The notes under the pieces: model-generated
Seen by the model: only the letters and a program-made list of their open reading frames with translations
Told to the model about the DNA's origin: nothing
Databases searched by the model: none
DNA from: Candidatus Electronema aureum
GTDB taxonomy: Bacteria > Desulfobacterota > Desulfobulbia > Desulfobulbales > Desulfobulbaceae
NCBI GenBank assembly: GCA_004284765.1
Contig: NQJD01000019.1
Location: forward strand, 15,724 to 47,723
Direction of reading: 5' to 3'
Length of the DNA stretch: 32,000 nt
Part shown: positions 11,939 through 27,236 of the stretch, in pieces
Position numbering within the stretch: the first letter of the stretch is position 1
Layout: each line of letters begins with the position of its first letter
Translations under genes and position numbers: made by a program

Positions 11939-13837
11939 TTACTCAAGCGGCGTGTCGCGCTCGAACATATTGTCATTAATCCTTATCTTCGCTTGAGCTT
12001 GAAGACTACCTAACCAAGCGGTCAACAAATCTCGCCGGGCAGTGGCTAACTGCTGCTCTCTCGCCTGCTCATTGGCCTTGGTCGCGCCCGCCTTCCGCTC
12101 TTTGACTTCATAGACAAACCAAGCCTCACCCACCTGCACCGGCTGGGCAGGTAGTTGCTCTTTCCAAGAAAGTTTAAAGGCTTCTTGGAGCATTTGTTCT
12201 GGTGGAGCATCTTTACCTGCTGGAGCCGAACGTTTGAGAAATTCAGTAGTTGTCACGACCACACCTTCAGCCGTTTGCAGTGCTTTTTTCTCTCGGCTGG
12301 CAGCGAGCAATTTAGTGGCAGCTTGAGCAGCTAATTCCGCCGCTTTTGCCTTGGCATGATCCGCAATAACTTTTTCCCGCACTGTGTCCAACGTAGGTAA
12401 GGCAGGCTCTTGAATATCATCGGCAAAAAGAACGGCATAGCCCTCGCGCAGCTCAATGATCGAGGATAGCTCACCTTTTTTCAAACCAAATGCTGCCTCG
12501 ATAAATTTAGGATCAGCAGGCAACGTGGCTGGGCGTTCTGTGCGGGAAAAATGCTCCGTAGTTTGCACCTTGCCCTGCTCCTTTTGGCTGTACTTATCCA
12601 AACTGCCTGCCTTCATGATCGACTCATAGGCAGTAGCAGCCCGTTTAAAGGTCAAGGCCTTGGCTCGCTGCCGCCGAATGCCTGCGGCGAGGTTATCTTT
12701 AACCTGCTCGAAACTGCGTACTACTTCCGGGCGCACTTCCTCTAACTTAATCAGGTGATAGCCAAAGTTAGTTTCTACCAGTCCGCTGGTCTCCCCCGCT
12801 TTCATGGCAAAAACTGCTGCGTCAAAGGCAGGTGCCATTCGTCCGGCAGGGAAAAAGCCCAGATCACCGCCCTGTTCTTTGTTACTGGTATCATCAGAAT
12901 ACTCTTTGGCTAAGGCGGCAAAATCGCTGTCTTTGGCCTGAGTTTTGGCCAGCACTTCCTCAGCCTTTTTTTTCTTTTCAGCCTTTATTGCTTCCGAAGC
13001 CCCTTCTTCGACTCGAAAAAGAATGTGGCGGGCATGACGCTGTTCTGGCTGACGGTAGCTTTCTTTGTCCTGCTCGTACTTGGCCTTTAGCTCTTCCTCA
13101 GCAACTTGCACTTGCTGCTCGTCCTCGCTTTGATTAAAGAGCAAATACTTCAGCCGAATTTTCGGCTCAGAGCGATACTTGGCTTTATTTTTTTCAAACC
13201 AAGCTGCGAGTTCGTTGCCGTCCGCTTTGACTTGAGACTCAAAGGCAGCAGGCTCAAATTTTACGTAAGCTATTTTGATTTCTTCGTCTGTATAGGCTGC
13301 CCAACGCTCAACGGCATTATCAGGCACCACGGCGAAGTTACCAACCAATTCTTGTACTCGGTCAGTGCCAAGATCGGATTTGAGGCCTTTTTCAAAGCTG
13401 CCTATAGTCATTTTGTTCTGGGCGAGGACATCTTTGTAGCGTTGAAGGCTAAAATGACCATTTTCTTGAAAAACATCCATTTGCTCAATTCGCTTCTGCA
13501 CTGGTAAATCGCTGACCGTGATGCCCGCCTCGGTGCCGCCCTGTCGAAGCAGCTCCGCTTGGATCAGGCGGTATAGTACCTGTTCCTTAATACCCAGCTG
13601 CTCGACAAAGCCGGGTGGCATTTTTCCGCCAAACTGCTGCTGGAGACCGTCCACCGCTTGCCCGTAGGCCCGCTGAAAATCGACACCGGAAATATCCGTG
13701 TCGTTAACTGAGGCTACCGAATTACGGCGACCTCCCAGATTGGTGCCAACTCCCCAGAAGATGAAAACGACCATGATGATCAGCACCACGGCCTGGATCA
13801 AGGTTGACTGCGCTTTCTTGCGTAAAAAATCCAACAT
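11939..13837 (-). CDS. ppiD: Periplasmic chaperone / peptidyl-prolyl isomerase PpiD
   Basis: It has an N-terminal membrane anchor (LIQAVVLIIMVVFIFWGV) and SurA-N-like helical regions. The parvulin domain reads HARHILF...GGDLGFF...FGYHLIKL. The 632-aa length is typical. Confidence 0.85.
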   Translation of the reverse strand: MLDFLRKKAQSTLIQAVVLIIMVVFIFWGVGTNLGGRRNSVASVNDTDISGVDFQRAYGQAVDGLQQQFGGKMPPGFVEQLGIKEQVLYRLIQAELLRQGGTEAGITVSDLPVQKRIEQMDVFQENGHFSLQRYKDVLAQNKMTIGSFEKGLKSDLGTDRVQELVGNFAVVPDNAVERWAAYTDEEIKIAYVKFEPAAFESQVKADGNELAAWFEKNKAKYRSEPKIRLKYLLFNQSEDEQQVQVAEEELKAKYEQDKESYRQPEQRHARHILFRVEEGASEAIKAEKKKKAEEVLAKTQAKDSDFAALAKEYSDDTSNKEQGGDLGFFPAGRMAPAFDAAVFAMKAGETSGLVETNFGYHLIKLEEVRPEVVRSFEQVKDNLAAGIRRQRAKALTFKRAATAYESIMKAGSLDKYSQKEQGKVQTTEHFSRTERPATLPADPKFIEAAFGLKKGELSSIIELREGYAVLFADDIQEPALPTLDTVREKVIADHAKAKAAELAAQAATKLLAASREKKALQTAEGVVVTTTEFLKRSAPAGKDAPPEQMLQEAFKLSWKEQLPAQPVQVGEAWFVYEVKERKAGATKANEQAREQQLATARRDLLTAWLGSLQAQAKIRINDNMFERDTPLE

Positions 13838-14112: not shown

Positions 14113-14433
14113 ATGGCAACCATTGAACACAACGGAAAATCTTACGAAGTTGATGAAGACGGCTTCTTGCTGAATGGCTCTGAGTCGTGGGATGACAACT
14201 GGGTCAGCTACGTCAAAGGCGTGGAAGGCATCGGCGATCTGACCGAAGAACACAAGAAGGTGATCGACGCGCTTCAAGAATACTACAAGAAAAACGGTAT
14301 TGCGCCTATGGTTCGTATTCTGTCCAAGACCACTGGCTTCCCGCTGAAGAGAATTTACGAGCTATTCCCGTCTGGGCCTGGCAAAGGAGCCTGTAAGATG
14401 GCCGGTCTGCCCAAACCCACTGGCTGCGTCTAA
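14113..14433 (+). CDS. dsrC: DsrC (TusE/DsrC/DsvC family sulfur-relay protein)
   Basis: The protein is 106 aa. Its C-terminal arm has the two conserved cysteines, GKGACKMAGLPKPTGCV, and internal motifs are LQEYYKKNGIAPMVRIL. Confidence 0.9.
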   Translation: MATIEHNGKSYEVDEDGFLLNGSESWDDNWVSYVKGVEGIGDLTEEHKKVIDALQEYYKKNGIAPMVRILSKTTGFPLKRIYELFPSGPGKGACKMAGLPKPTGCV

Positions 14434-14493: not shown

Positions 14494-15390
14494 TCATCTA
14501 TCCTCCGCACACAGAGTCTGGAAGGAATGAGGATGAGCCAGATCAAAACTGCTCGCATGACGGATGTACTTGGGGTTAAACCCCTCCTGCCGGATTTGCT
14601 GAATCAGCGCGCCGAATTCGGCAGTGGTTTTGACAAGGGTTGACTGGGCTACTTTGGGGAGCGCATAGTCAGCAACGATGCGGGCACCGCGCCGCACTTC
14701 TTCGCCGTGGCCTCGGTTGTCAGTGTAGTATTGCGACAGGACAATGATCCGGGTACCAAGAAACACCGCCTCTTCTAGGTCGTGGGTGACAAAAAAAATG
14801 GTCATTTTGAACTCTTCCCACAGCTCCAGCAGGAATATCTGCATGTTCTCCCGCGAGCCAGGATCAAGCGCACCAAACGGTTCGTCCATCAACAGGATTT
14901 TTGGCTGCATGATCAGTGATTGGGCAATCGCCACCCGCTGCCGCATCCCGCCAGACAGTTCGTGCGGGAACTTGCGACTGTGCTCTTGCAGGCCCATCCG
15001 GGTAAGATAGGTCATCGCCCTTTCCTCAAACTCCTTGCGCCGTCGTCGTCGTTCAAAAAAGCCATACGAAAGACGTAGACCAAGCAGCACGTTATCGAGG
15101 ACATTCAGATGAGGGAACAGTGAGTATTTTTGATAAACGATGCCTCGGCTGCGGTCAGCGAAGCCGCAGGGCTGGCCATCAACCAGCACCGTACCGGAAG
15201 AGGGAAACTCCTGCCCCAGCACTAAACGGAGCAGGGTTGATTTGCCGCAGCCTGACGGCCCGACCACGGTGACTATCTCGCCCGCTGCTACAGCTAAGTC
15301 GATGTTATCCAGCACGACCTTGCTGCCGTAGGCCTTGTACACATCCTCAAGAAAGAGGCAGCTTGTCTTGCGCAGCTCATCTGGGTTCAT
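14494..15390 (-). CDS. ABC transporter ATP-binding protein (NitT/TauT-type)
   Basis: Walker A is GPSGCGKST, the signature is LSGGMRQRVAIA, Walker B is ILLMDEPFGALD and the H-loop is FVTHDLEEA. The start overlaps the DoxX stop (ATGA). Confidence 0.9.
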   Translation of the reverse strand: MNPDELRKTSCLFLEDVYKAYGSKVVLDNIDLAVAAGEIVTVVGPSGCGKSTLLRLVLGQEFPSSGTVLVDGQPCGFADRSRGIVYQKYSLFPHLNVLDNVLLGLRLSYGFFERRRRRKEFEERAMTYLTRMGLQEHSRKFPHELSGGMRQRVAIAQSLIMQPKILLMDEPFGALDPGSRENMQIFLLELWEEFKMTIFFVTHDLEEAVFLGTRIIVLSQYYTDNRGHGEEVRRGARIVADYALPKVAQSTLVKTTAEFGALIQQIRQEGFNPKYIRHASSFDLAHPHSFQTLCAEDR

Positions 15391-15842
15391 ACTTTTCTTT
15401 CAGAATGCTTGGAATCAACGCTGAATGCGCCGGGGCCATTGGCGATAATCATCATCAGCCCTCCAATAATCGACAAATTTTTCATAAATGACTTCAGCTG
15501 ATCCTGGATTAGTTCCGGTTCCGTGAATGTCCAGAAATGATGAAAATAATATGTCCCTGAGATGGTGAAGATCAGGAGCAGCATTGCCCCAATTCGTGCC
15601 TTGAAACCGACAATCAGCGACAGGCTACCTGCGAGCAGGAAAGCAATTGCGCCGACCAGCATAACGCTGGGAAAAGGAACTCCCTCGTGCGCCATTCGTT
15701 CAGTAACATGATGGAAATCTGGAATTTTGCTGACAAGTGCGGTCAGCAAAAAGACCGAAGCGAGCAGTATTCTGCCGATCAGATTGATGATCCCAGCTTG
15801 AGCAGTTTTCATCTTTATGCTTTGTCTGCCTCCTGTTTGCAT
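15387..15842 (-). CDS. DoxX-family small membrane protein embedded in the ABC operon
   Basis: Four predicted TM helices are present. The DoxX-like N-terminus reads LIGRILLASVFLLTALVSKIPDF and continues ...GVPFPSVMLVGAIAFLLAGSLSLIVGFKARIGA. An RBS GGAAAGGA precedes the start. Confidence 0.78.
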   Translation of the reverse strand: MQTGGRQSIKMKTAQAGIINLIGRILLASVFLLTALVSKIPDFHHVTERMAHEGVPFPSVMLVGAIAFLLAGSLSLIVGFKARIGAMLLLIFTISGTYYFHHFWTFTEPELIQDQLKSFMKNLSIIGGLMMIIANGPGAFSVDSKHSERKV

Positions 15843-15854
15843 TCCTTTCCTATC

Positions 15855-16688
15855 CTACTCCTGCGACTCCAAATACCAAGCATAGCGTGTTCTCAGGATA
15901 AGGCGCAGCACAGAATCCACCACCGCGCCGATCAGAACAATCCAGAGTACATAGGGAATGATCAGATCCATTGCCAGATAACGCCGCACCAGAAAGATGC
16001 GGTAGCCGAGTCCGTTGGTGGCGGCAATGGCCTCAGCCGCAATGAGGAAGAGCCAGGCTGGCCCCATATTGATCCGCACGGTTTCGATCAGGCGCGGCAT
16101 GATCTGGGGAAGCACGATACGGTAGGCCAAACTGGTTTGAGACGCGCCCAAGGTGCAGGCTTTTATGATCTGCTCTCGTGGTATCTTCTTGACCGTCAGC
16201 TGGATGTCTCTGGTAATGAGCGGAAAGGTGCCGATGAAGATCAGTACCACCTTGGCCAGTTCATCTACGCCAAAGACAATGAAGAGGATGGGCAAGACAG
16301 CCAGCGGCGGAATGATCGAGACAAAGGTGACAAAGGGCAAGAAGAGATGCTCCATGCCGATGAAGATACCAAGGTTTAAACCGCAGAGCAGGCCGCAAAG
16401 GGCAGCTATTCCTAGTCCTATGCCGATGCGCCGCAGGCTTGCGCCAGTGTCTGTCCAAAGCTGGTATTCGCCGGTGCGGGCATTCTCCTCGAACGCGGCC
16501 CGCTGCATGGCATCATACATCTTTGATGCAGTCGGCAGGAGCTTATCCGAGGGATTCTCCCGCTGCCGGGTATCTGACGCTAGGGCGTAGATGATGACCA
16601 GCAGCGCGAAAGGGATGATAGTCAGCAGCCAGCGCAACCAGTTGGGTGGCGAGGCGTGAATGCCAAGGAATTTAGGTGGGGTGGGCAT
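15855..16688 (-). CDS. ABC transporter permease (NitT/TauT-type, BPD_transp_1)
   Basis: The protein is a polytopic membrane protein with an EAA-loop-like region: LGASQTSLAYRIVLPQIMPRLIETVRINMGPAWLFLIAAE. Confidence 0.85.
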   Translation of the reverse strand: MPTPPKFLGIHASPPNWLRWLLTIIPFALLVIIYALASDTRQRENPSDKLLPTASKMYDAMQRAAFEENARTGEYQLWTDTGASLRRIGIGLGIAALCGLLCGLNLGIFIGMEHLFLPFVTFVSIIPPLAVLPILFIVFGVDELAKVVLIFIGTFPLITRDIQLTVKKIPREQIIKACTLGASQTSLAYRIVLPQIMPRLIETVRINMGPAWLFLIAAEAIAATNGLGYRIFLVRRYLAMDLIIPYVLWIVLIGAVVDSVLRLILRTRYAWYLESQE

Positions 16689-16709
16689 GGGTTGTGAGAG
16701 TTTGTTGGT

Positions 16710-18458
16710 TCATCTTTCCCCATCATGCTGGGGAGCTTCCCATCTCTGTATTTTCTTCAGCATCTCTGGTTTGAAGTGCAGTTTCTCAATAAGATCGCCG
16801 CGCCGGAATGTGGCCGCCAAGCGTTGCAGACTGACATCCTGATCATTGTATAAAGCAAGGAGAGCTTCCTTGATCTTAGTTATTGCAGCAGAATGGTATT
16901 CATCGCCTTTGTTTTCAATCAGCTTGCGCGCATTTTCAAAGGTGCGATGGTCAAGCTGATTGAGCTGGATTCCCATTTCGGAAAGCAGTGAATCACCCAT
17001 AAGCATAGCAGCAAAGCAGGAAGAATATCTGATAAATTCTGGGGCATCAGCTTCTGGTCTTTTGCGTCTGTTCTCGGCTATCCTGAACAAGAGAACCGCA
17101 ATGATCACTTGGGCACCATTTAAGTCAGCAGTAAAAATAGTGTCATAAAGTTTTCCGAAATGCTCACCGGTCATGAACTTTGCTTGATGCGGACGATGCC
17201 GCCAAATGGAAAGCACAGCTTCAGCGGCTGTCCCGCTGGTGATGTCCGTATTTTTTGTAGCCACTTCGCTCCGCTGTCGTCTGTAGCTGTAGTCTAATTC
17301 CTTTATAGACAAGGCTAATTTTTGCTGCCGATCATCATTGGAACGCAAATCCCGCAGATCAACAGGATTCTGGCTGTTCGTCGCATACGTGATATTCCGA
17401 ACTAAGTCTTCCTCACCCTTTGGCAGCTCGTATATTCTGACAAGAACAGAGGCCTTCGGAGCAGTTATTGAACCAGAAGCAAGTTTCCGCTGAATTGTCT
17501 TACAGGTTTGCCCTCCGTTGATAATCTGCATTCCTGACAGTTTCACTGACCAATTTTCATCTTGCAAGGCATTATGTTGAAATTGGTTGCAGGTTAACGT
17601 AATCCCATTGTTATAAAAATAAAAATTTGGCTGCTCTTCTGGCATGGTCAGGGTGTAAGCGATGCCCTCATTGATGCGGTTACCCTGCAATCCAAGATAA
17701 CGCCGGATATTCCTCTCAAGGAGTCTGTCGCCATGCCTATCAAAGAGGGCAGCAAGCTCAGAAACCGCGATTTTACCCACTAAGACCCTGCGGAAATCAT
17801 AATCCTCAACAATGGCTTTGCCTGTAAGCCGGAGCGTGTCATTCACCGGTTTCAATGATTTAATTATCGCTACCAAGCTGTCATGATTGACATGCTCGAA
17901 CATAACCTGATCGCCAAAACCAGCATTTTCTATCAGCTCCTGCGCCTCGTTTTTCCAGATTGCTCCATTGTTGCAGGCAATGACTCTAACTTGCGGAAGA
18001 TATCCATCCGCAACGAATGAACGGATTTCTTCTATTCTTGGTTTCAGATTGGAATTCACCGTGATGGTTTTGTAGGGGTCAAAAAGTGTTCCTGCCGCTT
18101 GAATCAATTTCTCGATCCCTGTTTGCGGGAAGTTCGATTCGCCATCAAGATTGGATTTATATTTTCCTTGAAACAGGGTGACACCGAACTCGCCATCTTG
18201 AACTTCTCCAACTTCAACAGCATCAACTCCGAAATCCCCTCCGCCTTCGGTCAGACATTCAACCGCCTCCTCTTCGGTTAAATCCAACAGCGTCTTCACG
18301 ACTAAAACAACAAATGCCGCTGAACGCAATTTATCATCATTATTATTGAAGCCTACCTTTTCTTCGATTGTTGCTTTCTGGCGCTCGGCCAGTGCTCTTA
18401 CTTGCTGATCAATAATACTTGCGTTGATATTCACAACATCTTCTCCTTGTTCGAGCAT
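16710..18458 (-). CDS. AIPR-family (abortive infection phage resistance-like) protein
   Basis: The core AIPR pattern is LERNIRRYLGLQGNRINEGIAYTL...FYFYNNGITLTCNQF...MQIINGGQTCKTI. The N-terminal region has GGGDFGVDAVEV...FQGKY. The gene is visibly more AT-rich than both flanks. Confidence 0.82.
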   Translation of the reverse strand: MLEQGEDVVNINASIIDQQVRALAERQKATIEEKVGFNNNDDKLRSAAFVVLVVKTLLDLTEEEAVECLTEGGGDFGVDAVEVGEVQDGEFGVTLFQGKYKSNLDGESNFPQTGIEKLIQAAGTLFDPYKTITVNSNLKPRIEEIRSFVADGYLPQVRVIACNNGAIWKNEAQELIENAGFGDQVMFEHVNHDSLVAIIKSLKPVNDTLRLTGKAIVEDYDFRRVLVGKIAVSELAALFDRHGDRLLERNIRRYLGLQGNRINEGIAYTLTMPEEQPNFYFYNNGITLTCNQFQHNALQDENWSVKLSGMQIINGGQTCKTIQRKLASGSITAPKASVLVRIYELPKGEEDLVRNITYATNSQNPVDLRDLRSNDDRQQKLALSIKELDYSYRRQRSEVATKNTDITSGTAAEAVLSIWRHRPHQAKFMTGEHFGKLYDTIFTADLNGAQVIIAVLLFRIAENRRKRPEADAPEFIRYSSCFAAMLMGDSLLSEMGIQLNQLDHRTFENARKLIENKGDEYHSAAITKIKEALLALYNDQDVSLQRLAATFRRGDLIEKLHFKPEMLKKIQRWEAPQHDGER

Positions 18459-18526
18459 CCACTGTAATGCGCCAGCTTGACGAAATCCTGCACAGAGCAG
18501 ACGTGCCGCCCTGTGCTGAACATCGT

Positions 18527-19588
18527 TTACAACTTCCCATCCGCTGCCATCTGCATATAAGTCTTGTCAAAGCGCAGCTTGACGTTGGCCTTGTCGCCCA
18601 GCACGGCACCGTCCGGGAAGGCGATGCCCACCAACTCCTTGCTCGGCGCGCCCTCGCCATACAGGCCATGCTCGAAGCTGAAGGAGCGGACATAGTCCAT
18701 CGTCTTCTTCACCTGCTCGCCCGCAGCAAAGGCCGCAGCCTCAGCAGGTGCATAGAACATCTTGGTGGTCTTGAGCTGCGCCTTGAACTCTGCCAGCGTT
18801 CCGCCTGCTGACTTTGCCATCACCTCCAAGGCCTCCTTGCTGCCTGCCGGGCTGTTCATCTTGGCCATTGCCTCATACCAAGCACCGGTGAGGGCCTTCT
18901 TCAGTGCCTCTGGTGCGCTGGACTTGACCACCAGACAGTCGATAATCTCCCCTGGAATCTGCGAGGAGTCGAAGACGAGGTTAGCCCCTTTGACGTTGCG
19001 CACCTGCATCAGCAATGGGTTCCAAGTGGTGACTGCTGCCTTAGGGTCTTTCTCCACTTCTGAGGCAAAGATGGAGGCGATGTCTGCGTCACTGGTGTTG
19101 ATCAGGGTCAGGTCTTTCTCCTTCATGCCGTTCATGTCCAGGGCGCGGGTCAGCAGGTAGTGAGAGACCGAGAGCTGAACAATGCGCATCTTTCGTCCGG
19201 CAAGGTCTTTCACCGAGCTGCCATTCATCAGGACAACCCCATCATTGCCATTGGAGAAGTCGCCGACGATCAAAGCCGTGGAATCCACGCCTCCCACTGC
19301 TGGGATGGTCAGGGCATCCATGTTGGTCATTACACAGCCGTCAAACTGACCAGAGGTATAGAGGTTGATGCTCTCGACATAGTCATTGACCAGGACGATC
19401 TCCACCTTGTCTAAGCCGTACTTCTTGGCCCACTTGTCCATGATGCCGGACTCCTGAATATAAGCCCAGGGTTCCCAGCCTGTGTAGTGCGACCAGGCAA
19501 TGCGGTGGGTGCTGCCAGCAATGGCTTGGCTGGCCAGCAAGACACTCACAGCAGCGGTGATGATCAGTGACCTGATTCCCTTCTTCAT
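18527..19588 (-). CDS. ABC transporter periplasmic substrate-binding protein (NMT1/TauA-like fold)
   Basis: An internal ATG at 19588 is preceded by GGAGAAAGG. The signal peptide is MKKGIRSLIITAAVSVLLASQAIAG. Motifs are RIAWSHYTGWEPWAY and NDYVESINLYTSGQFDGCVMTNMDALTIPAVGGVDSTALIVGDFSNGNDG. The track's longer ORF (to 19753) would overlap the upstream gene. Confidence 0.85.
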   Translation of the reverse strand: MKKGIRSLIITAAVSVLLASQAIAGSTHRIAWSHYTGWEPWAYIQESGIMDKWAKKYGLDKVEIVLVNDYVESINLYTSGQFDGCVMTNMDALTIPAVGGVDSTALIVGDFSNGNDGVVLMNGSSVKDLAGRKMRIVQLSVSHYLLTRALDMNGMKEKDLTLINTSDADIASIFASEVEKDPKAAVTTWNPLLMQVRNVKGANLVFDSSQIPGEIIDCLVVKSSAPEALKKALTGAWYEAMAKMNSPAGSKEALEVMAKSAGGTLAEFKAQLKTTKMFYAPAEAAAFAAGEQVKKTMDYVRSFSFEHGLYGEGAPSKELVGIAFPDGAVLGDKANVKLRFDKTYMQMAADGKL

Positions 19589-19601
19589 GGTTCCTTTCTC
19601 C

Positions 19602-20810
19602 TTAATCAATCTCAAGATACATAGCCGGGCTGACCTGATTGCCCCGCTCCAGCTTCTTCGTTGCCTCTTCGGTCTCGGTGGTGAGCCTGTCCATCTCCAG
19701 GAGGCTCTTTGCCATCTGCGGCAGAGCCTCTTGACGGAAGCGGGCGATATCATCTAGGGCACCGTGGATATCAGCAAATGCCTGCTTGAGCACCTGCATA
19801 TCAAGCTGGCTACTCGCGGCCTGCTTGTGGATTTCCACGCCCTGCTGCTGAAGCCGTTTGGCGGTGTCGCCAATCAGCTTGTTGGTGGTCGTGTTGACCG
19901 CCTCGATCTTACCCAGCACGATCTTCTGATTCGCCAGGGCTAGGGCCACGGTCACAGCCACGCTGAGGGCATTGACCGTCACGTTGACCGCCCGATTCAC
20001 GCCCCGGATTAGCTCTTTGTTGTTGCGCACGATGATCTCGATGGCCAGGACAGCTTGTTGATTAACAGCTAACTGCTGCTGCAAGTCCATCAGCCGCTGC
20101 CGGAGCGGAAAGAGCAGCTCCTCGTTGATAAAGCTGGCCCGTGGGTCATCGGAAGGGATGTCCTGCGCCAGCACCTGACTGAGTTTCTTGTCCAGCAGCA
20201 TCCCCAGATCAATCGACTTCCGCAGCTTATGGGTAGCCAGGCGGAGCTGCTTCTGGTCGTCGGTCAGGGTGAGGTTGTCCCGCTTGAGGGTGTCTGCGCC
20301 ACCGTGGAGGGAGCGGAGAATGGCATCCAGTACGGTCTGCGCACTCTCGAACTGCATAAAGTAGCGCTTGAGCGGCGTGCCAATGCCGGGCAGCGCACCC
20401 AGGAGGCGGGCGAACCAGCCCGGATCAAGGTTGAACTTCTGCGGGTCTAGCTCCTCTACCTTCAGGTTCAGGTTCACCAGGGCATTCGCCACCTCGCCGC
20501 CGTCCTCACCCTTTTGCGCTAGCTTGCGGATTGGCTCCCGCAACATGGCACTGCGCAGGGCAGAATCCTTCTGGGCCTTCGCACCGAGGTTGTCGATTGA
20601 GGCAATATTCTGCTGCCTGATCTCTATCTGGGTAGCATCCTCCGGGTTAATGGCGAGGATGTTGGCAACAAACTCATTCGCCATCTTCTCCAGTTCTGGG
20701 TCGGCAGCCTGAACTGGTGCCAGGCTGATCGGATCAACCAGCCCTAGCTCTGCGCTCAATCTCTGCTCATCAACCTTGACCAAGCCTTTTTCCTGCACTG
20801 TCTCTGCCAT
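19602..20810 (-). CDS. telA: TelA-like toxic anion resistance family protein
   Basis: An internal ATG at 20810 is preceded by AAGGAGA. The helical protein carries TelA-like stretches: DNLGAKAQKDSALRSAMLREPIRKL, LKVEELDP, LKRYFMQFESAQTVLDAILRSL and TLKRDNLTLTDDQKQLR. Confidence 0.78.
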   Translation of the reverse strand: MAETVQEKGLVKVDEQRLSAELGLVDPISLAPVQAADPELEKMANEFVANILAINPEDATQIEIRQQNIASIDNLGAKAQKDSALRSAMLREPIRKLAQKGEDGGEVANALVNLNLKVEELDPQKFNLDPGWFARLLGALPGIGTPLKRYFMQFESAQTVLDAILRSLHGGADTLKRDNLTLTDDQKQLRLATHKLRKSIDLGMLLDKKLSQVLAQDIPSDDPRASFINEELLFPLRQRLMDLQQQLAVNQQAVLAIEIIVRNNKELIRGVNRAVNVTVNALSVAVTVALALANQKIVLGKIEAVNTTTNKLIGDTAKRLQQQGVEIHKQAASSQLDMQVLKQAFADIHGALDDIARFRQEALPQMAKSLLEMDRLTTETEEATKKLERGNQVSPAMYLEID

Positions 20811-20850
20811 CTCCCTGTCTCCTTTGCTGTTCCTGTTGAACGGCTTGAAC

Positions 20851-20910
20851 AGGGTACCTATCAGCCTGTCTGGAGGGTACCCTGTAGAATATCTGGAGGG
20901 TACCCTCCAG
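20851..20910. repeat. Phased array of three GGTACC-centred sites in the XpaC-like/TelA-like spacer, including a perfect 18-bp palindrome
   Basis: GTAC cores lie at 20854, 20877 and 20900, exactly 23 bp apart. The 15-nt direct repeat tctggagggtaccct occurs at 20869-20883 and 20892-20906. ctggagggtaccctccag (20893-20910) is its own reverse complement. Confidence 0.75.
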
Positions 20911-20917
20911 CGATACT

Positions 20918-21751
20918 TCAATACTGCCGAGCGCGGACTGCCACCTGCTGGAGCTGCGCAATGGCGGCCTCGAAATCGCCTTGCGCCAACGCGGTGTTGG
21001 TGGACATCGCTGCCACTGCTACCACGGTCTCTTCCAGGGCAGTCATCGCCTCCTCGTTGGCCGCCAGCAGTTCATTCACCCGCTCTAGCTGCTCGCAGCG
21101 CAGCTTGCTCCGACGGATGAGGGTTTCTCGCTCCTTGCGGTCAGCCTCGTTGGTGGGTTCCTTTATGCTGGCAAGCTGCTTATCAATATAGTCGAGATCA
21201 ATACCGCCGACACTTTCCAGCAGGACAATGATGCGTTGCAGGGTATCCAGACTGCCGAGATAGACCTGCTCTGCTGCGCCGAGGAAACGCCCGTAGGACA
21301 GCTCGCCGTGCTGGAACCGTGTTGCCAGCAGGCTGCCCAGCTTGTCGAACTTGACCCGCATCCGCTCGAACTGCTCCAAACCCTGCTCGGCATACGCTTC
21401 GGCACCGGCAATCCGCTCCGCCTGTTGAAGGCTGCGGCGCAGGCCCTCAAGCATCTGCGCTTTCTGTCTCTGGCTACCCTCGACAAGCTGCTGAAGATAG
21501 CTCGCCGAGAGTGCCTCACCCCGGAAGAAGATATTGACAATAGCACTGCCCAAGCCCACGGTCAGCCCGCCCAGCAGACCGAGGTAAAGCAGAGGCGTGT
21601 TGAAGAGATAGGCGGCAAAGCCGAGCGGCAGTGCCAGGGCAGGCGGGTAGAGGGTCAGCCAGTGGGTCAACCCCTGCCAGACCACATGCCCTTGAATGGC
21701 ACGCTGGCTGAAGTCTTGCAGCTTGGGCGGAGATGGGGGAGTGGACTGCAT
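20918..21751 (-). CDS. 2-TM membrane protein with a long coiled-coil C-terminal region (XpaC-like partner of TelA)
   Basis: Two hydrophobic helices (LYPPALALPLGFAAYLF and LLYLGLLGGLTVGLGSAIVNIFF) are followed by a helical region. The architecture and position next to TelA match the XpaC/TelA pairing known from Bacillus (xpaC-yaaN). The family call rests on architecture only. Confidence 0.55.
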   Translation of the reverse strand: MQSTPPSPPKLQDFSQRAIQGHVVWQGLTHWLTLYPPALALPLGFAAYLFNTPLLYLGLLGGLTVGLGSAIVNIFFRGEALSASYLQQLVEGSQRQKAQMLEGLRRSLQQAERIAGAEAYAEQGLEQFERMRVKFDKLGSLLATRFQHGELSYGRFLGAAEQVYLGSLDTLQRIIVLLESVGGIDLDYIDKQLASIKEPTNEADRKERETLIRRSKLRCEQLERVNELLAANEEAMTALEETVVAVAAMSTNTALAQGDFEAAIAQLQQVAVRARQY

Positions 21752-21784
21752 TGGCTCAGAATTCCTGTTTAGCGGGCGATAAGG

Positions 21785-21824
21785 TTGTCAGCATGTTGAC
21801 AAGCAGCCTGATTGTATATACAGT
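21785..21824 (+). promoter_or_regulatory. Candidate brnTA promoter/operator
   Basis: An inverted repeat TTGTCA-gcatgt-TGACAA (21785-21802) overlaps a TTGACA -35 (21796-21801). A 17-nt spacer leads to TACAGT (21819-21824). The ATG at 21830 has no SD upstream, which suggests a leaderless or near-leaderless mRNA. Confidence 0.4.
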
Positions 21825-21829
21825 AAACC

Positions 21830-22102
21830 ATGCGCTACGAATGGGACGAAAGCAAACGAGCTGCCAACCTTGCCAAACACGGTGTGGACTTCCACAAGGC
21901 CGAACAGTTCGAGTGGATAACAGCGGTCGAAGCCAAGGACAACCGTTTCGACTATGGCGAGGAACGCTGGATTGCGCTTGGTATGATTGGTAATCGTCTT
22001 CATGTTCTCATCTATACCATCCGGGGCGACAGCATCCGTCTCATCAGCCTGCGTCGGGCCAACCCTCGCGAGAAGGAGCATTATGAACAAGCAACGACCT
22101 GA
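21830..22102 (+). CDS. brnT: BrnT-family ribonuclease toxin (DUF497)
   Basis: The sequence reads MRYEWDESKRAANLAKHGVDFHKAEQ...ERWIALGMIGNRLHVLIYTIRGDSIRLISLRRANPREKEHY. Confidence 0.85.
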   Translation: MRYEWDESKRAANLAKHGVDFHKAEQFEWITAVEAKDNRFDYGEERWIALGMIGNRLHVLIYTIRGDSIRLISLRRANPREKEHYEQATT

Positions 22103-22364
22103 ACATATCTCCCAAGAGGATTGGGATGCTGTTGATTCTCCTCCCTTAGATGACTCCCTTCTTGCTGCTATGAAACCGGTGAGGATGGAGCATCCCGACA
22201 TTCCGCCACGGGTGCGCGGCCCCCAGAAAGCAGCAAGGAAAGCCGCTGTCTCCATCCGGCTTGACCAGTCCGTTGTTGAGTCCTTCCGGGCTACGGGTCG
22301 CGGTTGGCAGGCCCGTGTGAATGACATCCTGCGGGACTGGCTCAAGGAGCACAAACCGGCCTGA
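22083..22364 (+). CDS. brnA: BrnA-family antitoxin
   Basis: The ATG at 22083 overlaps the brnT 3' end by 20 nt. The C-terminal pattern is KAAVSIRLDQSVVESFRATGRGWQARVNDILRDWLKEH. Confidence 0.85.
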   Translation: MNKQRPEHISQEDWDAVDSPPLDDSLLAAMKPVRMEHPDIPPRVRGPQKAARKAAVSIRLDQSVVESFRATGRGWQARVNDILRDWLKEHKPA

Positions 22365-22376
22365 GCCAGTCCCTGT

Positions 22377-23912
22377 TCACATATCTTCCCTGACCAGCAC
22401 CAGTTCCACGCGCGGCAGGCGGTACTCGTAGGTGCGCAGGGACTCGCCGGGCTGCTGGGCAAGCGGTTTGGTGCCGCCTAAGCCCAGAGGCCGGACGCGG
22501 TTGGCATCCATGCTGTGGGTGATCTGCAAGTAGCGGCTGACTGCTTCTGCCCGTTCTTGAGAGAGGCGCAGATTCTCGTCTGCGTCCCCGCGCACACCTG
22601 TATGTCCCTTGATGACAATACGGAAGTGGGGATAGTGACTGAGCCGGGCCATTGCGGTGTCGATGGTCTGCTTGCCGAGGACATCCAAGGTGGCTGTGCC
22701 TTGCTGGAAGATGATGGGATCAATCTTCAAGGTGCCGACCTCCTTGAGCGCATCCCAGCCTGCGTTGTCAAGCGGAGCAAATGCAGTAGCTCCAGCCGAA
22801 GAAGCCTTCTCGCCGGACGCGGCAAAGAGTTCTTCAAGAAAGCCTTTATTGGTAAGCCGGTAAGGGTTGCCGTCCGGTACTGGGCTGGCGGTGAAATCCC
22901 CTGCATTCACCAGTATCTCTGCTGCCGATTCGATGGCCGCAACCAAGCCTTCCTCCCCTGCCCCGCCTGCCGCAGCGATGCCAAACCACTGCTCGCAGTT
23001 GTCTGCCAGAGAGAGCCAGTCCACGCCCTTGAGCATGATACGCACCGGCTCTTCAGCGAGGCCCGTTTCCTCCTTGATGTGGCGGATGAATAGCCCCTCT
23101 TCTTGGCGGTACTTCTTCAGCACCTTGAAGTAGGTGGAGAGGAAGAGCTTGACGATGTCGGGGTTCTTCTGAGCAAAGTCCCGGCGGACCAGCAGCACGT
23201 CTACAATCAGTCGCTCTGTATCCTCAGTGCCAAGCAGCTTCACTATCCCCTTCTCCTGAAGGGCCTTGGTGACATCCGGCTCCCAGAGCACAGCCACATC
23301 AGCCTTGCCGGAGAGCAGGGCGTTCTTCGCCTGCTCAGAGCCGTTCACGGCCAGACGCAGAGGGCCAGACGCAGGATGCAGCTCCTTGACATTGAAGTGA
23401 TCTGCTGCTGCCTTGGCCAGATGTTCGCTGGGACTGGCTGGAGTGAAGGCAACCTTAGCATCCAGCTTGCCCTTCAGATCATCAAGGCTTGCCACTCGGT
23501 CTTTGCGGGCAAGGATGGCATCGCCGCCCTTGGACTCGTCGAGTACCGCAACAATGACCGCAGGATAGGCAAACCGCTCGGCATTGAGGAGGTAGGAATC
23601 CACCGTGGCGACAGCGAAATCAAGTTCTCCCTTCTCAAGACGCTCCATGCGGCGGCGATAATCAGCCTTGTCGTCCTCCCAGGCCAGCAGCCAGCCCGCC
23701 CGGTGCATCGCGCTCTTCATCTCTGGTGAGCGCAAGGGGAAGTAGCCAATCCAGTTGTCCAAGGCGATGCGGAGCTTACCCTGCGTCTGGGCTGCATCGC
23801 TGGTGGTCTGCTGCTTGCGGTCAAGCAGCTTAGGTAGAAGTAGCCAGATGCCGTAGGTGACACCAAGGCCCAACAGGAGCAGCAGCAGGGCACCAATCAG
23901 CCTGGCCTTCAT
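22377..23912 (-). CDS. Membrane-anchored SBP-fold (NMT1-like) domain fused to a C-terminal OmpA_C peptidoglycan-binding domain
   Basis: The N-terminal anchor is LIGALLLLLLGLGVTYGIWLLL. The SBP-like region reads LRIALDNWIGYFPL...DFAVATVDSYLL...DESKGGDAIL. The OmpA_C region reads IIFQQGTATLD...IVIKGHTGVRGDADENLRLSQERAEAVSRYL...LPRVELVLV. The start overlaps the upstream stop (ATGA). Confidence 0.8.
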   Translation of the reverse strand: MKARLIGALLLLLLGLGVTYGIWLLLPKLLDRKQQTTSDAAQTQGKLRIALDNWIGYFPLRSPEMKSAMHRAGWLLAWEDDKADYRRRMERLEKGELDFAVATVDSYLLNAERFAYPAVIVAVLDESKGGDAILARKDRVASLDDLKGKLDAKVAFTPASPSEHLAKAAADHFNVKELHPASGPLRLAVNGSEQAKNALLSGKADVAVLWEPDVTKALQEKGIVKLLGTEDTERLIVDVLLVRRDFAQKNPDIVKLFLSTYFKVLKKYRQEEGLFIRHIKEETGLAEEPVRIMLKGVDWLSLADNCEQWFGIAAAGGAGEEGLVAAIESAAEILVNAGDFTASPVPDGNPYRLTNKGFLEELFAASGEKASSAGATAFAPLDNAGWDALKEVGTLKIDPIIFQQGTATLDVLGKQTIDTAMARLSHYPHFRIVIKGHTGVRGDADENLRLSQERAEAVSRYLQITHSMDANRVRPLGLGGTKPLAQQPGESLRTYEYRLPRVELVLVREDM

Positions 23913-24700
23913 TGCTGGAACGTAGCGACATCAAAGGTTTCTGCTTCGGCCAGCACATCCGCCAAACCTTGGCGCAGGGCAGCAGGATTATCCGCTGCCT
24001 TATAGACGGTGCGGCCTGGCATGTTAAGGGCGTGATCCGTGCCGATGCAGAAGCCGATGGTGTGCAGCTCTACTGGGGTGTTATCCAGCATCCAGCGGAC
24101 TTTCTCTGTAGGATCATGGCCCGGATTTGCCTGTCCATCTGTGACCACCACCAAGACGTAGCGGCCATAGCCGAGCTGACGCATGGCCTGCTGCTCAAGC
24201 TGGGCATAACCTGCGCTGATTGCCTCGTGCAAGGGCGTACCACCAGCCGCAGAGGCAGACTGCACCTGCTCGGCAAGCTGCTGCCGGTTGCCAGTGCCTA
24301 TAGGCACCAGTTCCCGAATTTGGCTGTCAGTGAAGATCAACATCCCAAGGTTTGCATCTGCTGGCACACTGGCAGCAAACTCCTTGAGCGCGTTCTTGGC
24401 GGTCTCGATCTTGCTCTGATTGCCCGAACACTGGCGTTCAAGCATGGAGCCGCTGCCATCCAGCACGACATAGTAGTTGTCAGCTAACAGGTTTGGGGCC
24501 AGCACTGTATTCCCATTTGGTGCAGGCGGCCAAGGCAGGGCGAGTGGCTTTTGTGCGGCAGCGACCGGAACAGTTTGACTTGCCGCCTTTGCTGCGGGTA
24601 GATTGCTCTGCTTCGGCTGCTGTGCGTCCTTGCAAGCAGCAAGCCCACTGACCAAGATCATCGCGCAGAGCAAGGGCAGCATCTTCTTTTGCGTCCTCAT
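23909..24700 (-). CDS. vWA-domain lipoprotein
   Basis: An internal ATG at 24700 is preceded by GAGGGG. The lipobox signal is MRTQKKMLPLLCAMILVSGLAAC. The MIDAS motif is YYVVLDGSGSM, followed by ...GGTPL...VLVVVTDGQAN. The track's longer ORF (to 25048) overlaps the upstream gene and reads as noise. Confidence 0.8.
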   Translation of the reverse strand: MRTQKKMLPLLCAMILVSGLAACKDAQQPKQSNLPAAKAASQTVPVAAAQKPLALPWPPAPNGNTVLAPNLLADNYYVVLDGSGSMLERQCSGNQSKIETAKNALKEFAASVPADANLGMLIFTDSQIRELVPIGTGNRQQLAEQVQSASAAGGTPLHEAISAGYAQLEQQAMRQLGYGRYVLVVVTDGQANPGHDPTEKVRWMLDNTPVELHTIGFCIGTDHALNMPGRTVYKAADNPAALRQGLADVLAEAETFDVATFQQ

Positions 24701-24710
24701 ATCATGCCCC

Positions 24711-26429
24711 TCACAGCGACTTGAAGACCGAGGATTCGGCTTCGAGCTGAATGATGCGGAACTCCACCCGCATATTGTCGCGCCACTCCTGCTCGGTTTT
24801 GGGTGGGCAGGGATCGCCGCCGCAGATACCGGTCTTGGGTTTAGCAATACCGTGGCCGACCACGGCAAACTGGCTCTCATCAAGGACAACACCCTTGGAT
24901 GAGGCAAACTCGGTGATGCCGGTGCGCACCGCATTGGCCCGTGAGAGGCTGAGATTCTTGGCAGCCTGTTTGATCTGGCCAAGCGACATCTCTGTGGCGT
25001 TCTGCTTCTTTGCCTTGAGATAGCCCATCGGGTCAGAGTGGCCTTCAATCGTGATCACCGCGCCGCCGTAGGTGCTTGCCAGCTCAATCACCTTGCTGAA
25101 GGCATCAGCGTAGAGATCAGCAGAGAACTGGTTCTGGTTGGGCTGAAAGAAGACTTCAAAGGAAAACAGCTCGCCCTGGTTGAGGGTGTCCTGCTGCTGC
25201 TTGCGCTGGATCACACCTGCGACCTGGGCCGTGTCGAACTTGGGCACAGCCACGCCTACCACATTGGTCAGGCCCTCTTTCAGTACGCTATAGTCAAAGC
25301 CAGCTGCAGTCAGGGGAGCCTTCTTCGCGAGCAGGTCGATCTTGACTAAAGCACTCTGAATCTGCTCCTTGAGATTGCTGAAGTTACGCGGATAGTTCGC
25401 ATCGGTGAAGAACTTAACGTTGCCAGCAAAGCCGACAAACTCACAGTCTGCATACAGCGATTCAGCATCTGCCGTGGCTGCCGGACTATCAAAGAGGAGC
25501 TGGGCCGAAGCCTTAATTGTCTCGGTGTAGTCCTTCATCCGGCTGGCTTTGTCTTTGAACAGGGCGGAGAGCTGCTCCTCGCCTTGCATCAGGCCGTTGA
25601 CGAACTTCTCCACCTCGCTGCGGTGGACCTTGAAGTAATCCGAGCGTACTGCATAGACATCGGCAATCACCCGGTTGGCCGTTTTGCTGGAAAGCATGAT
25701 CTCCGCGTCCTTGACCGAGCCTTCCGCGCCCGTGCCCACTTTGCCGCCCGAAGTGAGGGCCTGCCCGTCTGGAATGATCATCAGGGCCGCGTCAACGTCT
25801 GCATCATGGAAGGCTTCTGCCGGGGTCTCTTGCGTGCCAGTGAGGTCTTTCACCCACTTTATGCTGACATCGCTCATGGACAAGCCCGCATCGGCCAAAA
25901 CCTTAGCTAAATAATCCACATGCGGGCCGTATGCCTGAAGAGCCACGGTTTTGCCCTTGAGATCTTTAGCTGTCTTGATGCCCGGCTTGACAACTAAGCA
26001 GTCGCCGCCGTTCGACCAGGTGAGCTGGTAGATGATCACCGGCGCGGTGCGCGGGTCACGGGCTAAAACCTCGGCAGCCATATTGACCATGCCAAGGGTA
26101 CCGCGTAGGTAGGGGGTTTCGCCGCTCAGATAGGCTTCCACCTGCTTCTTAAAGTCATCCTCACGCACTAAAGTTAGCTTCAGACCCTTTTTGGCAAAGA
26201 TGCTATTCGGCGCAGTCTTGGCCGCATTGCCGTTGGCAAGGATAGTCGCCTCGTCGCCGCCCCAGGTAATCAGTGGCACCCGGATGACATCCGCTGCCTT
26301 GACATCCGCCACAGGCTCATTGATGGTCTTTGCCAACGGTGGCGCATCAACATACTGCACTGCCTGGGCCGCAGAACAGCACAGCGCGAGACAAATGAAA
26401 ACGAACTGGCTAATTCGTGGTCGCATCAT
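24711..26429 (-). CDS. Secreted SBP-fold (NMT1-like) domain fused to a C-terminal OmpA_C-like domain
   Basis: The signal peptide is MMRPRISQFVFICLALCCSAAQA. The SBP-like region reads IRVPLITWGGDEATILANG...IIYQLTWSNGGDCLVV...KTVALQAYGPHVDYLAKVL. The OmpA-like end reads VFFQPNQNQFS...VITIEGHSDP...LSLSRANAVRTGI...NMRVEFRII. Confidence 0.8.
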   Translation of the reverse strand: MMRPRISQFVFICLALCCSAAQAVQYVDAPPLAKTINEPVADVKAADVIRVPLITWGGDEATILANGNAAKTAPNSIFAKKGLKLTLVREDDFKKQVEAYLSGETPYLRGTLGMVNMAAEVLARDPRTAPVIIYQLTWSNGGDCLVVKPGIKTAKDLKGKTVALQAYGPHVDYLAKVLADAGLSMSDVSIKWVKDLTGTQETPAEAFHDADVDAALMIIPDGQALTSGGKVGTGAEGSVKDAEIMLSSKTANRVIADVYAVRSDYFKVHRSEVEKFVNGLMQGEEQLSALFKDKASRMKDYTETIKASAQLLFDSPAATADAESLYADCEFVGFAGNVKFFTDANYPRNFSNLKEQIQSALVKIDLLAKKAPLTAAGFDYSVLKEGLTNVVGVAVPKFDTAQVAGVIQRKQQQDTLNQGELFSFEVFFQPNQNQFSADLYADAFSKVIELASTYGGAVITIEGHSDPMGYLKAKKQNATEMSLGQIKQAAKNLSLSRANAVRTGITEFASSKGVVLDESQFAVVGHGIAKPKTGICGGDPCPPKTEQEWRDNMRVEFRIIQLEAESSVFKSL

Positions 26430-26539: not shown

Positions 26540-26708
26540 GTCTTTTATAAAAATGGGCAGCGCGATCAATTTGAGTAAGTAAGCCTGTTTCGCTGAAGCC
26601 TTGAAAAACATGCTTGCGCAACGCCCGCAAATATGGTTCTGATACGGGTGCGGCGCAGCGGTGTTCCGCTGCCCTCTGTCACCCAACTCACATTTGCGAG
26701 GTTTGATT

Positions 26709-27236
26709 ATGGAAGAAACAAGTTGGATTGCTGAACTGTTTGCCAATCTCTTTGTGCGCGGACTGTTGGTTGGTCTGATTGTCGCTTTGGCTTTCTGGGT
26801 TCGCTCAATCATCAAGGTGCGGGTGCTGCACGCCGATCTGCGCAAGCTGCGCGAGCATCTTCAGACTAAGTTTGAGATTGAATCAGCAGAGAACGAGCGG
26901 CGCAAGGAGGAGATGAATCAACTCCGGCAAGAGCGCGATAACCTCCGCAACATGATTCAGGTCTTGAACCAAAAGCCGAACAAGCAGGAACTTCGTCAGG
27001 CCCAAGTCTATCAGAAGGCAGCGGAGATCATGTTTGAGAAATCGCCCGGCTTTGCCCCGGTCTGGCAGATCACCCTGCGTGAGGCTGAGGAAGAGATGCG
27101 CAATGCAGAGAAAGGCATTATCCCCTTCTTTAAGCGGATTACTTCCAGCACTCCAGTTGCCACGCACTCTTCTGAGCAGAAAATGCAGTCACACGGCAAG
27201 CATCGTCTTGAGTTAGACGACCCGGCCAATCTCTAA
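26709..27236 (+). CDS. Single-pass membrane protein with cytoplasmic coiled coil (hypothetical)
   Basis: The ATG at 26709 is preceded by GAGG. The TM helix is LFVRGLLVGLIVALAFWV. A heptad-rich segment follows (LRKLREHLQTKFEIESAENERRKEEMNQLRQERDNLRNMIQVL). No family was recognised. Confidence 0.6.
   Translation: MEETSWIAELFANLFVRGLLVGLIVALAFWVRSIIKVRVLHADLRKLREHLQTKFEIESAENERRKEEMNQLRQERDNLRNMIQVLNQKPNKQELRQAQVYQKAAEIMFEKSPGFAPVWQITLREAEEEMRNAEKGIIPFFKRITSSTPVATHSSEQKMQSHGKHRLELDDPANL

Follow-up and report, generated by a model that had tools for sequence, protein, structure and literature searches.

Which system, if any, is encoded by the long run of minus-strand genes in the freshwater cable bacterium Candidatus Electronema aureum, in which wall-associated binding proteins, a von Willebrand factor A (vWA) protein, TelA and an importer lie side by side? 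The run is found on contig NQJD01000019.1, in a stretch of 32,000 nucleotides (nt) that as a whole is referred to here as the window, and it is read from position 26429 down to 14494. Its eight recurrent genes are designated A to H. A and C are fusions of a substrate-binding protein (SBP) domain with an OmpA-like domain, B is the vWA protein, D is a membrane protein of an unannotated family, E is TelA, and F, G and H are the binding protein, permease and ATPase of an ATP-binding cassette (ABC) importer. The region is almost certainly one copy of a conserved eight-gene envelope module. The ten minus-strand open reading frames (ORFs) listed in Table 1 were all recovered by ORF listing and profile searches, and the profile searches upheld the gene and domain calls of the original prediction, which had been made from the letters of the sequence: two SBP-OmpA fusions, a vWA lipoprotein with a metal-ion-dependent adhesion site (MIDAS), a helical protein with two transmembrane (TM) segments, TelA and a NitT/TauT-type importer.

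Conservation and modularity of the array

One genome per species was scanned with an alignment of C as query, which gave 127 confirmed relatives and 80 loci that were kept, from Desulfobacterota, Gamma- and Betaproteobacteria, Elusimicrobiota, Bdellovibrionota and a few metagenome-assembled genomes (MAGs) labelled as candidate phyla radiation (CPR). Orthologues were counted by tblastn of the window proteins, the denominator being the loci with room for the gene, and were present in 70 of 71 loci for A, 75 of 77 for B, 73 of 80 for D and 59 of 75 for E, and for the importer in 52 of 69 (F), 48 of 65 (G) and 41 of 56 (H). All eight genes occur in 37 C-anchored loci with a median span of 9.1 kb, and 32 of these are strictly colinear in the order A-B-C-D-E-F-G-H. 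The median intergenic distances across related loci are 4-55 bp. D adjoins C in 76 of 83 loci when found with a hidden Markov model of D, and it is the gene directly before E in 56 loci as well as in the window (median gap 32 bp); F, G and H are adjacent to each other in most loci. Around all three distant C homologues that were looked up, in Desulfogranum japonicum, an uncultured Desulfobacter and a 'Planctomycetes' MAG, the identical array was found without the DoxX, AIPR and BrnTA genes, and three look-ups anchored on D instead of C returned the same neighbourhood in each case, A-C and E included. The arrangement is more than chance because this synteny is conserved across phyla. Order, strand and short gaps are kept in distant lineages as in a conserved operon, for which co-transcription is predicted. 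The families are thus co-localised in related genomes, a point on which the original prediction had staked itself.

Two cultured species, Desulfosarcina variabilis and Desulfogranum japonicum, carry the cluster. C is also carried on six Vibrio megaplasmids, and the one inspected, pSEA2 of Vibrio alfacsensis (NZ_AP019851.1, ~234.6-243.8 kb, locus L085), has the full set in the order H-A-B-C-D-E-F-G with a C of about 36% identity. This plasmid-borne cluster shows horizontal mobility. Genetics is feasible, since the module is at hand in the two cultured species and on mobilizable Vibrio multidrug-resistance plasmids. In the Prokaryotic Genome Annotation Pipeline (PGAP) annotation of pSEA2, A, B and C are named 'nitrate ABC transporter substrate-binding protein', 'VWA domain-containing protein' and 'phosphate ABC transporter substrate-binding/OmpA family protein', and D, E and F 'hypothetical protein', 'toxic anion resistance protein' and 'putative urea ABC transporter substrate-binding protein'; the names given to A and C are best treated as placeholders. 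pSEA2 itself is of the mobilizable MOBH type and is described in the literature as a multidrug-resistance plasmid. Three MAGs labelled as Parcubacteria/Sungbacteria of the CPR (L046, L047 and L078) also hold the full cluster, with about 52% identity to C, which may reflect mis-binning or a real transfer.

Within the array A-B-C-D is the tight core, and TelA and the importer are frequent but separable. The original prediction had TelA at the centre of the cluster, and this part of it did not hold as an obligatory arrangement, given that TelA is present in only the 59 of 75 loci counted above. Pairwise-identity correlations over 30 complete loci were highest for A-C (0.65), C-D (0.64) and E-F (0.70) and, confounded as they are by shared phylogeny, hint at two co-evolving sub-modules. 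Gene order is permuted in some loci, for example to E-F-G-H-A-B-C-D or G-H-A-B-C-D-E-F, with the modules still adjacent. Such variation would also be expected if A-B-C, D-E and F-G-H were independent units brought together by chance or by selfish-operon transfer, and the permuted orders, the variants without TelA or without the importer, and the separation of A-B-C from D-E-F in Ca. Electronema halotolerans all speak for it. Independence of the units is nevertheless highly improbable: strict colinearity with 4-55 bp gaps holds for 32 complete loci out of 37 and spans at least five phyla as well as plasmids, the modules remain adjacent even where they are permuted, and look-ups anchored on D recover A-C and E every time. 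The reading as one module with a tight core and separable parts is therefore kept below.

Binding proteins, importer and the D-TelA pair

A, C and F share the periplasmic binding protein II (PBP-II) fold at profile level, and in this respect the claim of one NMT1/TauA-like binding fold in all three proteins stands. Two of them are in addition fused to OmpA-like domains. The OmpA domain of C passes the profile cutoff of 27.2 bits (scores in Table 1), the C profile matches many OmpA-like chains in the PDB, and the Arg motif is kept in 77 of 82 C orthologues. A stays below the same cutoff; the motif GHSD...LSxxRAxxV is nonetheless present and its orthologues keep GHSD in 64 of 69 and LSxxRAxxV in 69 of 69 cases. 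The sub-threshold score of A is due to a conserved 16-aa insertion between the two motifs. Accordingly, both fusions claimed earlier are retained, A with intact motifs and C above cutoff. Structures of AbOmpA and Pal show contacts of diaminopimelic acid with two residues of these motifs, the Asp in GH[TA]D and the Arg in LSxxRAxxV.

In the AlphaFold2 (AF2) model of C (pLDDT 73), residues 2-36 form a TM helix that anchors the protein in the inner membrane, 45-300 the SBP domain, 310-375 a disordered linker and 383-508 the OmpA domain. Its best Foldseek match is TauA (6ssy, E 2.6e-16, TMt 0.79), followed by SsuA. C is 100% identical to a protein of Ca. Electronema aureum. More than 1154 homologues of C were found, which are 55-60% identical across phyla and in which DNWIGYF, AVATVDS, DESKGGD and WEPD are among the invariant motifs. 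In its layout, with a TM helix at the N-terminus and an OmpA-like domain at the C-terminus joined by a linker, C is MotB/TssL-like and compares with the OmpA-like wall anchors of envelope machines (MotB/PomB, TssL/TagL, Pal, YfiB); YfiB also provides a precedent for an OmpA-like protein in envelope-stress signalling. The cluster differs from MotB/TssL-type machines in that it has no channel of the MotA/ExbB/TolQ type, C has no conserved TM Asp, and an SBP domain lies between the anchor and the OmpA domain.

B exceeds the VWA cutoff of 23.8 bits and has the DxSxS...T...D metal site, with the DxSxS of the MIDAS kept in 73 of 75 orthologues and a lipobox in 37 of 75. vWA proteins of the TerY type in Ter systems are cytoplasmic and coupled to a kinase/PP2C phosphorylation switch. 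The proposed likeness of B to TerY had to be given up: B has either a signal peptide with lipobox or a hydrophobic anchor at the N-terminus, and the conserved neighbours include neither a kinase nor a PP2C gene.

F, G and H are encoded together as binding protein, permease and ATPase of a NitT/TauT-type importer. F belongs to TIGR03427 ('putative urea ABC transporter SBP'; cutoff 333.9 bits), as do 21 of 21 F orthologues tested. The best NCBIfam match of G is TauC (3.9e-31) and that of H the taurine ATPase (2.3e-58). A search for solved structures similar to F gave only weak matches to SsuA and TauA, and no urea or guanidine carboxylase genes were found nearby. In its complete F-G-H set the cluster resembles the NitT/TauT importers TauABC and SsuABC and those of TIGR03427, labelled 'urea carboxylase-associated'. 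It differs from the characterised ones in that these have a single free binding protein and are not known to possess paralogues tethered to the wall or partners of the vWA or TelA kind.

Three PBP-II proteins beside a complete NitT/TauT importer could mean that the whole array serves nutrient scavenging, with A and C as wall-tethered high-capacity binders that concentrate a scarce nitrogen or sulfur solute for F-G-H, and with D and TelA doing no more than buffer the membrane against a toxic or anionic substrate. The membership of F in a family tied to urea/guanidine-type nitrogen assimilation, the resemblance of C to TauA and SsuA, and a cluster free of regulators all fit this explanation. It is still unlikely, as about 25% of loci, for instance in Electrothrix, keep A-B-C-D but not F-G-H, and as A and C have no detectable sequence similarity to F, so that docking on G is improbable. 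Moreover, vWA/MIDAS proteins and TelA are not known to play a role in any characterised importer, and the high conservation of the non-transport genes would be left unexplained.

D is all-helical in its AF2 model (pLDDT 76.6), with an N-terminal TM hairpin. Its family comprises 1171 clusters at E<=1e-3 in a library clustered at 50% identity and is unannotated, with GELxYGRFxGAAEQV and NEEAMT among the invariant motifs. No match to D was obtained in Pfam or NCBIfam, none to a PDB fold at E<0.1, and no homologue was found in phage genomes. TelA matches PF05816, the toxic anion resistance family, over profile positions 7-328 of 332 (gathering score 30; Table 1), and the search for solved structures returned coiled-coil noise only. 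The description of D as an 'XpaC-like' partner of TelA survives for the architecture, that is an N-terminal TM part, a helical cytoplasmic part and a position directly upstream of telA, and fails for the sequence. The XpaC-TelA (YaaN) pairs of Firmicutes, such as xpaC-yaaN of B. subtilis, lmo1966-67 of Listeria and xpaC-telA of E. faecium, likewise have telA directly downstream of a gene for a small membrane protein with a cytoplasmic helical region. They are implicated in resistance to agents active on membrane or wall and in phospholipid organisation: xpaC and telA alter daptomycin binding and phospholipid microdomains in E. faecium (PMC6811118), and a telA mutant of Listeria is nisin-sensitive (PMC12791056). 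These pairs differ from the cluster in having no SBP-OmpA, vWA or ABC-importer genes, and in that D shows no detectable sequence similarity to XpaC.

Proposed function of the module

For some three decades TelA has counted as a 'resistance' gene that lacks a mechanism. The operon puts it in a fixed and broad partnership with wall-anchored binders, an exported MIDAS protein, an unannotated membrane family and an importer, and this partnership turns a vague stress annotation into testable ideas on partners, ligands and a trans-envelope signal path. Judged from sequences and models, A, B, C and F are exported or wall-associated, the TM helix of C, the hairpin of D and G are in the membrane, and the helical domain of D, TelA and H are cytoplasmic. 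The reading that we favour, tentatively, is a wall-tethered ligand-sensing complex coupled to a D/TelA membrane module and to a dedicated importer. A and C would act as Venus-flytrap receptors kept at the peptidoglycan via their OmpA-like domains and would join B, a metal-dependent adhesion protein, in a periplasmic complex that is anchored to the wall and senses or captures a small polar solute, which might be of the taurine/sulfonate, phosphonate or urea/guanidine-like class. The TM helix of C and the TM hairpin of D would relay the state of the complex inwards, to TelA and the cytoplasmic domain of D. By analogy with XpaC/TelA of Firmicutes, D and TelA would organise or protect lipids at the inner membrane face, and the F-G-H importer would handle the same or a related solute. 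Possibly A-B-C-D is a trans-envelope machine in itself, in which the two flytrap receptors and the MIDAS protein signal via D, and TelA and the TIGR03427 importer are optional plug-ins. If true, such a machine with optional TelA would give the first concrete handle on the role of TelA in diderm bacteria, testable on the Vibrio plasmids.

The way in which such a complex would work has an analogy in TorT-TorS, LuxP-LuxQ and ChvE-VirA, where a flytrap protein reports its ligand to a membrane protein and not to a transporter. There the output is a histidine kinase, whereas the cluster is without kinase or regulator and its binding proteins are fused to OmpA domains. Closer in composition is an in-silico proposal: a 2012 abstract by Anantharaman, Iyer and Aravind in Mol Biosyst reportedly linked TelA/TerB complexes to Coq4 and to PH-like lipid-binding domains, with periplasmic binding-protein-II and OmpA domains possibly included. 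TelA and the two PBP-II-OmpA fusions of the window, together with a Coq4-like gene in seven related loci, agree with the TelA-centred 'membrane-associated sensory complexes' said to be predicted there; the tight core A-B-C-D and a TelA that is dispensable in about 20% of loci do not. Literature searches found no published account of this cluster and no characterised system with its composition. The novelty claimed in the original prediction is lower if that TelA/PBP-II/OmpA link was drawn there; no experimental characterisation was found in the literature. The Electronema cluster is thus a new member of a kind that was reportedly predicted in silico and is experimentally uncharacterised.

A number of observations weigh against the favoured reading and are taken together here. 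Complex formation among A-D and TelA, and the nature of the ligand, are what we infer from sequence. BLASTP does not align A, C and F with each other (E>0.01), so that one ligand for all three is assumed. Among 82 C orthologues, only 12 retain the canonical Asp of GH[TA]D and 70 lack it. About 20% of loci have no TelA, among them loci of Desulfomonilaceae and Syntrophaceae, where the gap between D and F is 55-128 bp; the importer is missing from about 25%, and A-E stand without it beside them in some Gammaproteobacteria and in Electrothrix. A distance of about 120 kb separates A-B-C from D-E-F in Ca. Electronema halotolerans. D has no detectable homology to XpaC or TelA: 0 of 20 members of the D family match PF10112 ('Halogen_Hydrol') at E<=1, and a comparison of D as a TelA paralogue by hhalign gave a probability of 0.5%. 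The analogy with Firmicutes consequently rests on architecture and adjacency. Lastly, the cluster comes with no regulator or kinase and with no riboswitch or sigma-54 promoter, and so the output of the 'sensing' is undefined. Riboswitches or other known RNAs were found neither in the window nor in 7 related loci. As to the sigma-54 promoter, a candidate upstream of A was rejected, with 1 of 68 loci positive vs 3 of 68 in the reverse-complement control.

In Ca. E. halotolerans (OW818675.1; L005, L084), A-B-C lies at ~0.01 Mb and D-E-F at ~3.09 Mb, the latter being followed by DUF445 and CHAT-TPR genes.

Inserts, accessory neighbours and gene coordinates

The coordinates of the core genes and of the genes inserted between them are given in Table 1.

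Table 1. Genes of the cluster in the window, in the order of reading from A to H, with their best profile scores
Gene	Position	Strand	Length (aa)	Features	Profile scores
A	24711-26429	-	572	Signal peptide, NMT1/TauA-like binding domain, OmpA-like domain	NMT1 37.3 bits; OmpA 22.5 bits
B	23909-24700	-	263	Exported vWA lipoprotein, lipobox LAAC, DGSGS MIDAS	VWA 48.7 bits; VWA_2 47.4 bits
C	22377-23912	-	511	N-terminal TM helix, binding domain, OmpA domain	OmpA 57.3 bits; also NMT1, Phosphonate-bd
brnT	21830-22102	+		Insert, C/D junction	PF04365 96.1 bits
brnA	22083-22364	+		Insert, C/D junction	PF14384 77.2 bits
D	20918-21751	-	277	N-terminal TM hairpin, cytoplasmic helical bundle of ~200 aa	No Pfam/NCBIfam match
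E (TelA)	19602-20810	-	402		PF05816 229.5 bits
F	18527-19588	-	353	Free periplasmic binding protein	TIGR03427 484.9 bits
AIPR	16710-18458	-	582	Insert, AbiU type	PF10592 171 bits
G	15855-16688	-	277	Permease, TauC/SsuC-like	BPD_transp_1 66.9 bits
DoxX	15387-15842	-	151	DoxX-family membrane protein, lineage-specific insert	PF07681 49 bits
H	14494-15390	-	298	ATPase, TauB-like	ABC_tran 116 bits

The brnTA pair, the AIPR gene of AbiU type and the DoxX gene are three later inserts in the operon of Ca. E. aureum. The junctions of the window measure 10 nt for A-B, -4 for B-C, 107 for D-E, 13 for E-F, 68 for F-AIPR, 21 for AIPR-G, 12 for G-DoxX and -4 for DoxX-H; the only wide one is the C-D gap of 625 nt (others -4 to 107 nt), which is occupied by brnT and brnA. 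These two form a type II toxin-antitoxin pair antisense to the operon, pass both Pfam cutoffs and overlap by 20 nt, with a promoter-like site (TTGACA-17-TACAGT, 21796-21824) just upstream of brnT. At the C/D junction brnTA occurs in three Electronema genomes only (the window, L004 and L006). The AIPR protein matches the PADLOC model of AbiU, a single-gene abortive-infection protein, over nearly its full length (1.3e-39). Its gene lies co-directionally between F and G in the window only, no homologue of it was found by tblastn in the 83 loci L001-L083, and its G+C content (GC) of 0.455 goes with a GC at third codon positions (GC3) of 0.456 vs 0.64-0.75 in the core genes. That AIPR and BrnTA are mobile-looking inserts, as proposed at first, agrees with their restriction to a lineage and their absence from the distant arrays; convincing direct repeats flanking either insert were not found. 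DoxX, with a GC3 of 0.507 vs the same 0.64-0.75, separates G from H in just two loci, those of the window and of Electronema sp. PJ (L004), and the median G-H gap in 41 other loci is 4 bp. The importer had been described as DoxX-containing, and on these grounds DoxX is dismissed as an importer subunit. DoxX, AIPR and BrnTA should not be annotated as parts of the system.

Operon junctions are an insertion hotspot that has been colonised repeatedly in the Electronema lineage, and in these cable bacteria the colonisers include toxin-antitoxin and abortive-infection genes. Electronema sp. PJ has a DUF4160/DUF2442 pair at the E/F junction and a second BrnT/BrnA pair at F/G (L004, 14301-14802 and 16888-17434). 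A related metagenomic locus has TPR and polysaccharide-deacetylase genes at C/D (L088, 5563-7988 and 10261-10791).

The presence of toxin-antitoxin and AbiU genes at the operon junctions in Electronema raises the question of envelope-level exclusion of phage, colicins or bacteriocins, by which a wall-anchored surveillance complex would trigger a TelA-dependent membrane response. Ter/TelA loci have historically been tied to the inhibition of phages and to resistance against colicins (work cited in PMC12054061), mobilizable Vibrio plasmids carry the cluster, and an AAA+ ATPase with weak likeness to the anti-phage protein IteA (73 bits vs a cutoff of 510) adjoins it in 13 loci. In PADLOC-DB v2, however, no model matches A, B, D, E, F or G, the match of C is confined to the MotB-like part of ZorB and that of H to generic ATPase models, and the cluster has no nuclease, protease or pore-forming effector. 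An identity of 50-60% across phyla with a fixed gene order is unlike fast-evolving defence islands, and homologues were not found in phage genomes. The inserts are lineage-specific and therefore do not define the system. A defensive role is for these reasons distinctly unlikely, and the module is preferably read as the wall-tethered sensing complex proposed above.

Accessory neighbours of the module occur in subsets of loci, and none of them lies within the window. A RaSEA-like radical-SAM protein of ~340 aa with a CX4CX2C motif is encoded in 16 loci (e.g. L002 16565-17596 and L037 6120-7142), directly upstream of A or downstream of H; its 107-111 bits against the archaeosine enzyme model TIGR01210, at a cutoff of 212, indicate distant kinship. 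The AAA+ ATPase of the 13 loci is of the classic clade, ~490 aa long and mostly divergent upstream of A (e.g. L007 5842-7320). The Coq4-like protein of the 7 loci has ~195 aa (e.g. L051 1465-2064) and scores 21 bits with PF05019, just under the cutoff. A 196-aa ORF upstream of the cluster in the Vibrio plasmid was considered as a further Coq4-like gene and rejected, as it showed no similarity.

The true starts of F, E and B in Table 1 were chosen on the basis of orthologue lengths and the positions of ribosome-binding sites, the mechanical ORF calls being too long (18527-19753, 19602-20921 and 23909-25048, respectively). For TelA the start is the ATG at 20810 behind an AGGAG site, and the longer ORF start was rejected. 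The 224-aa antisense ORF over brnTA at 21788-22462 is spurious. At 20851-20910, in the D-E spacer, a perfect 18-bp palindrome, CTGGAGGGTACCCTCCAG, is present in two and a half copies, with 4 matches vs 0.12 expected by chance. It was found in 0 of 88 related loci, and it could be an operator or an intercistronic RNA hairpin.

The flanking genes on the low-coordinate side are unrelated to the cluster. They encode DsrC (14113-14433, +; PF04358, 114 bits), a PpiD/SurA-like periplasmic chaperone (11939-13837, -) and a 1388-aa protein in which motifs like those of SNF2 helicases were seen by eye (7658-11824, -). On the other side a 191-aa ORF (26661-27236, +) is divergent from A and has an N-terminal hydrophobic segment and a coiled coil, with no significant family match; it is followed by genes for a SpoU methylase (27251-28039) and a DUF218 protein (28036-28806).

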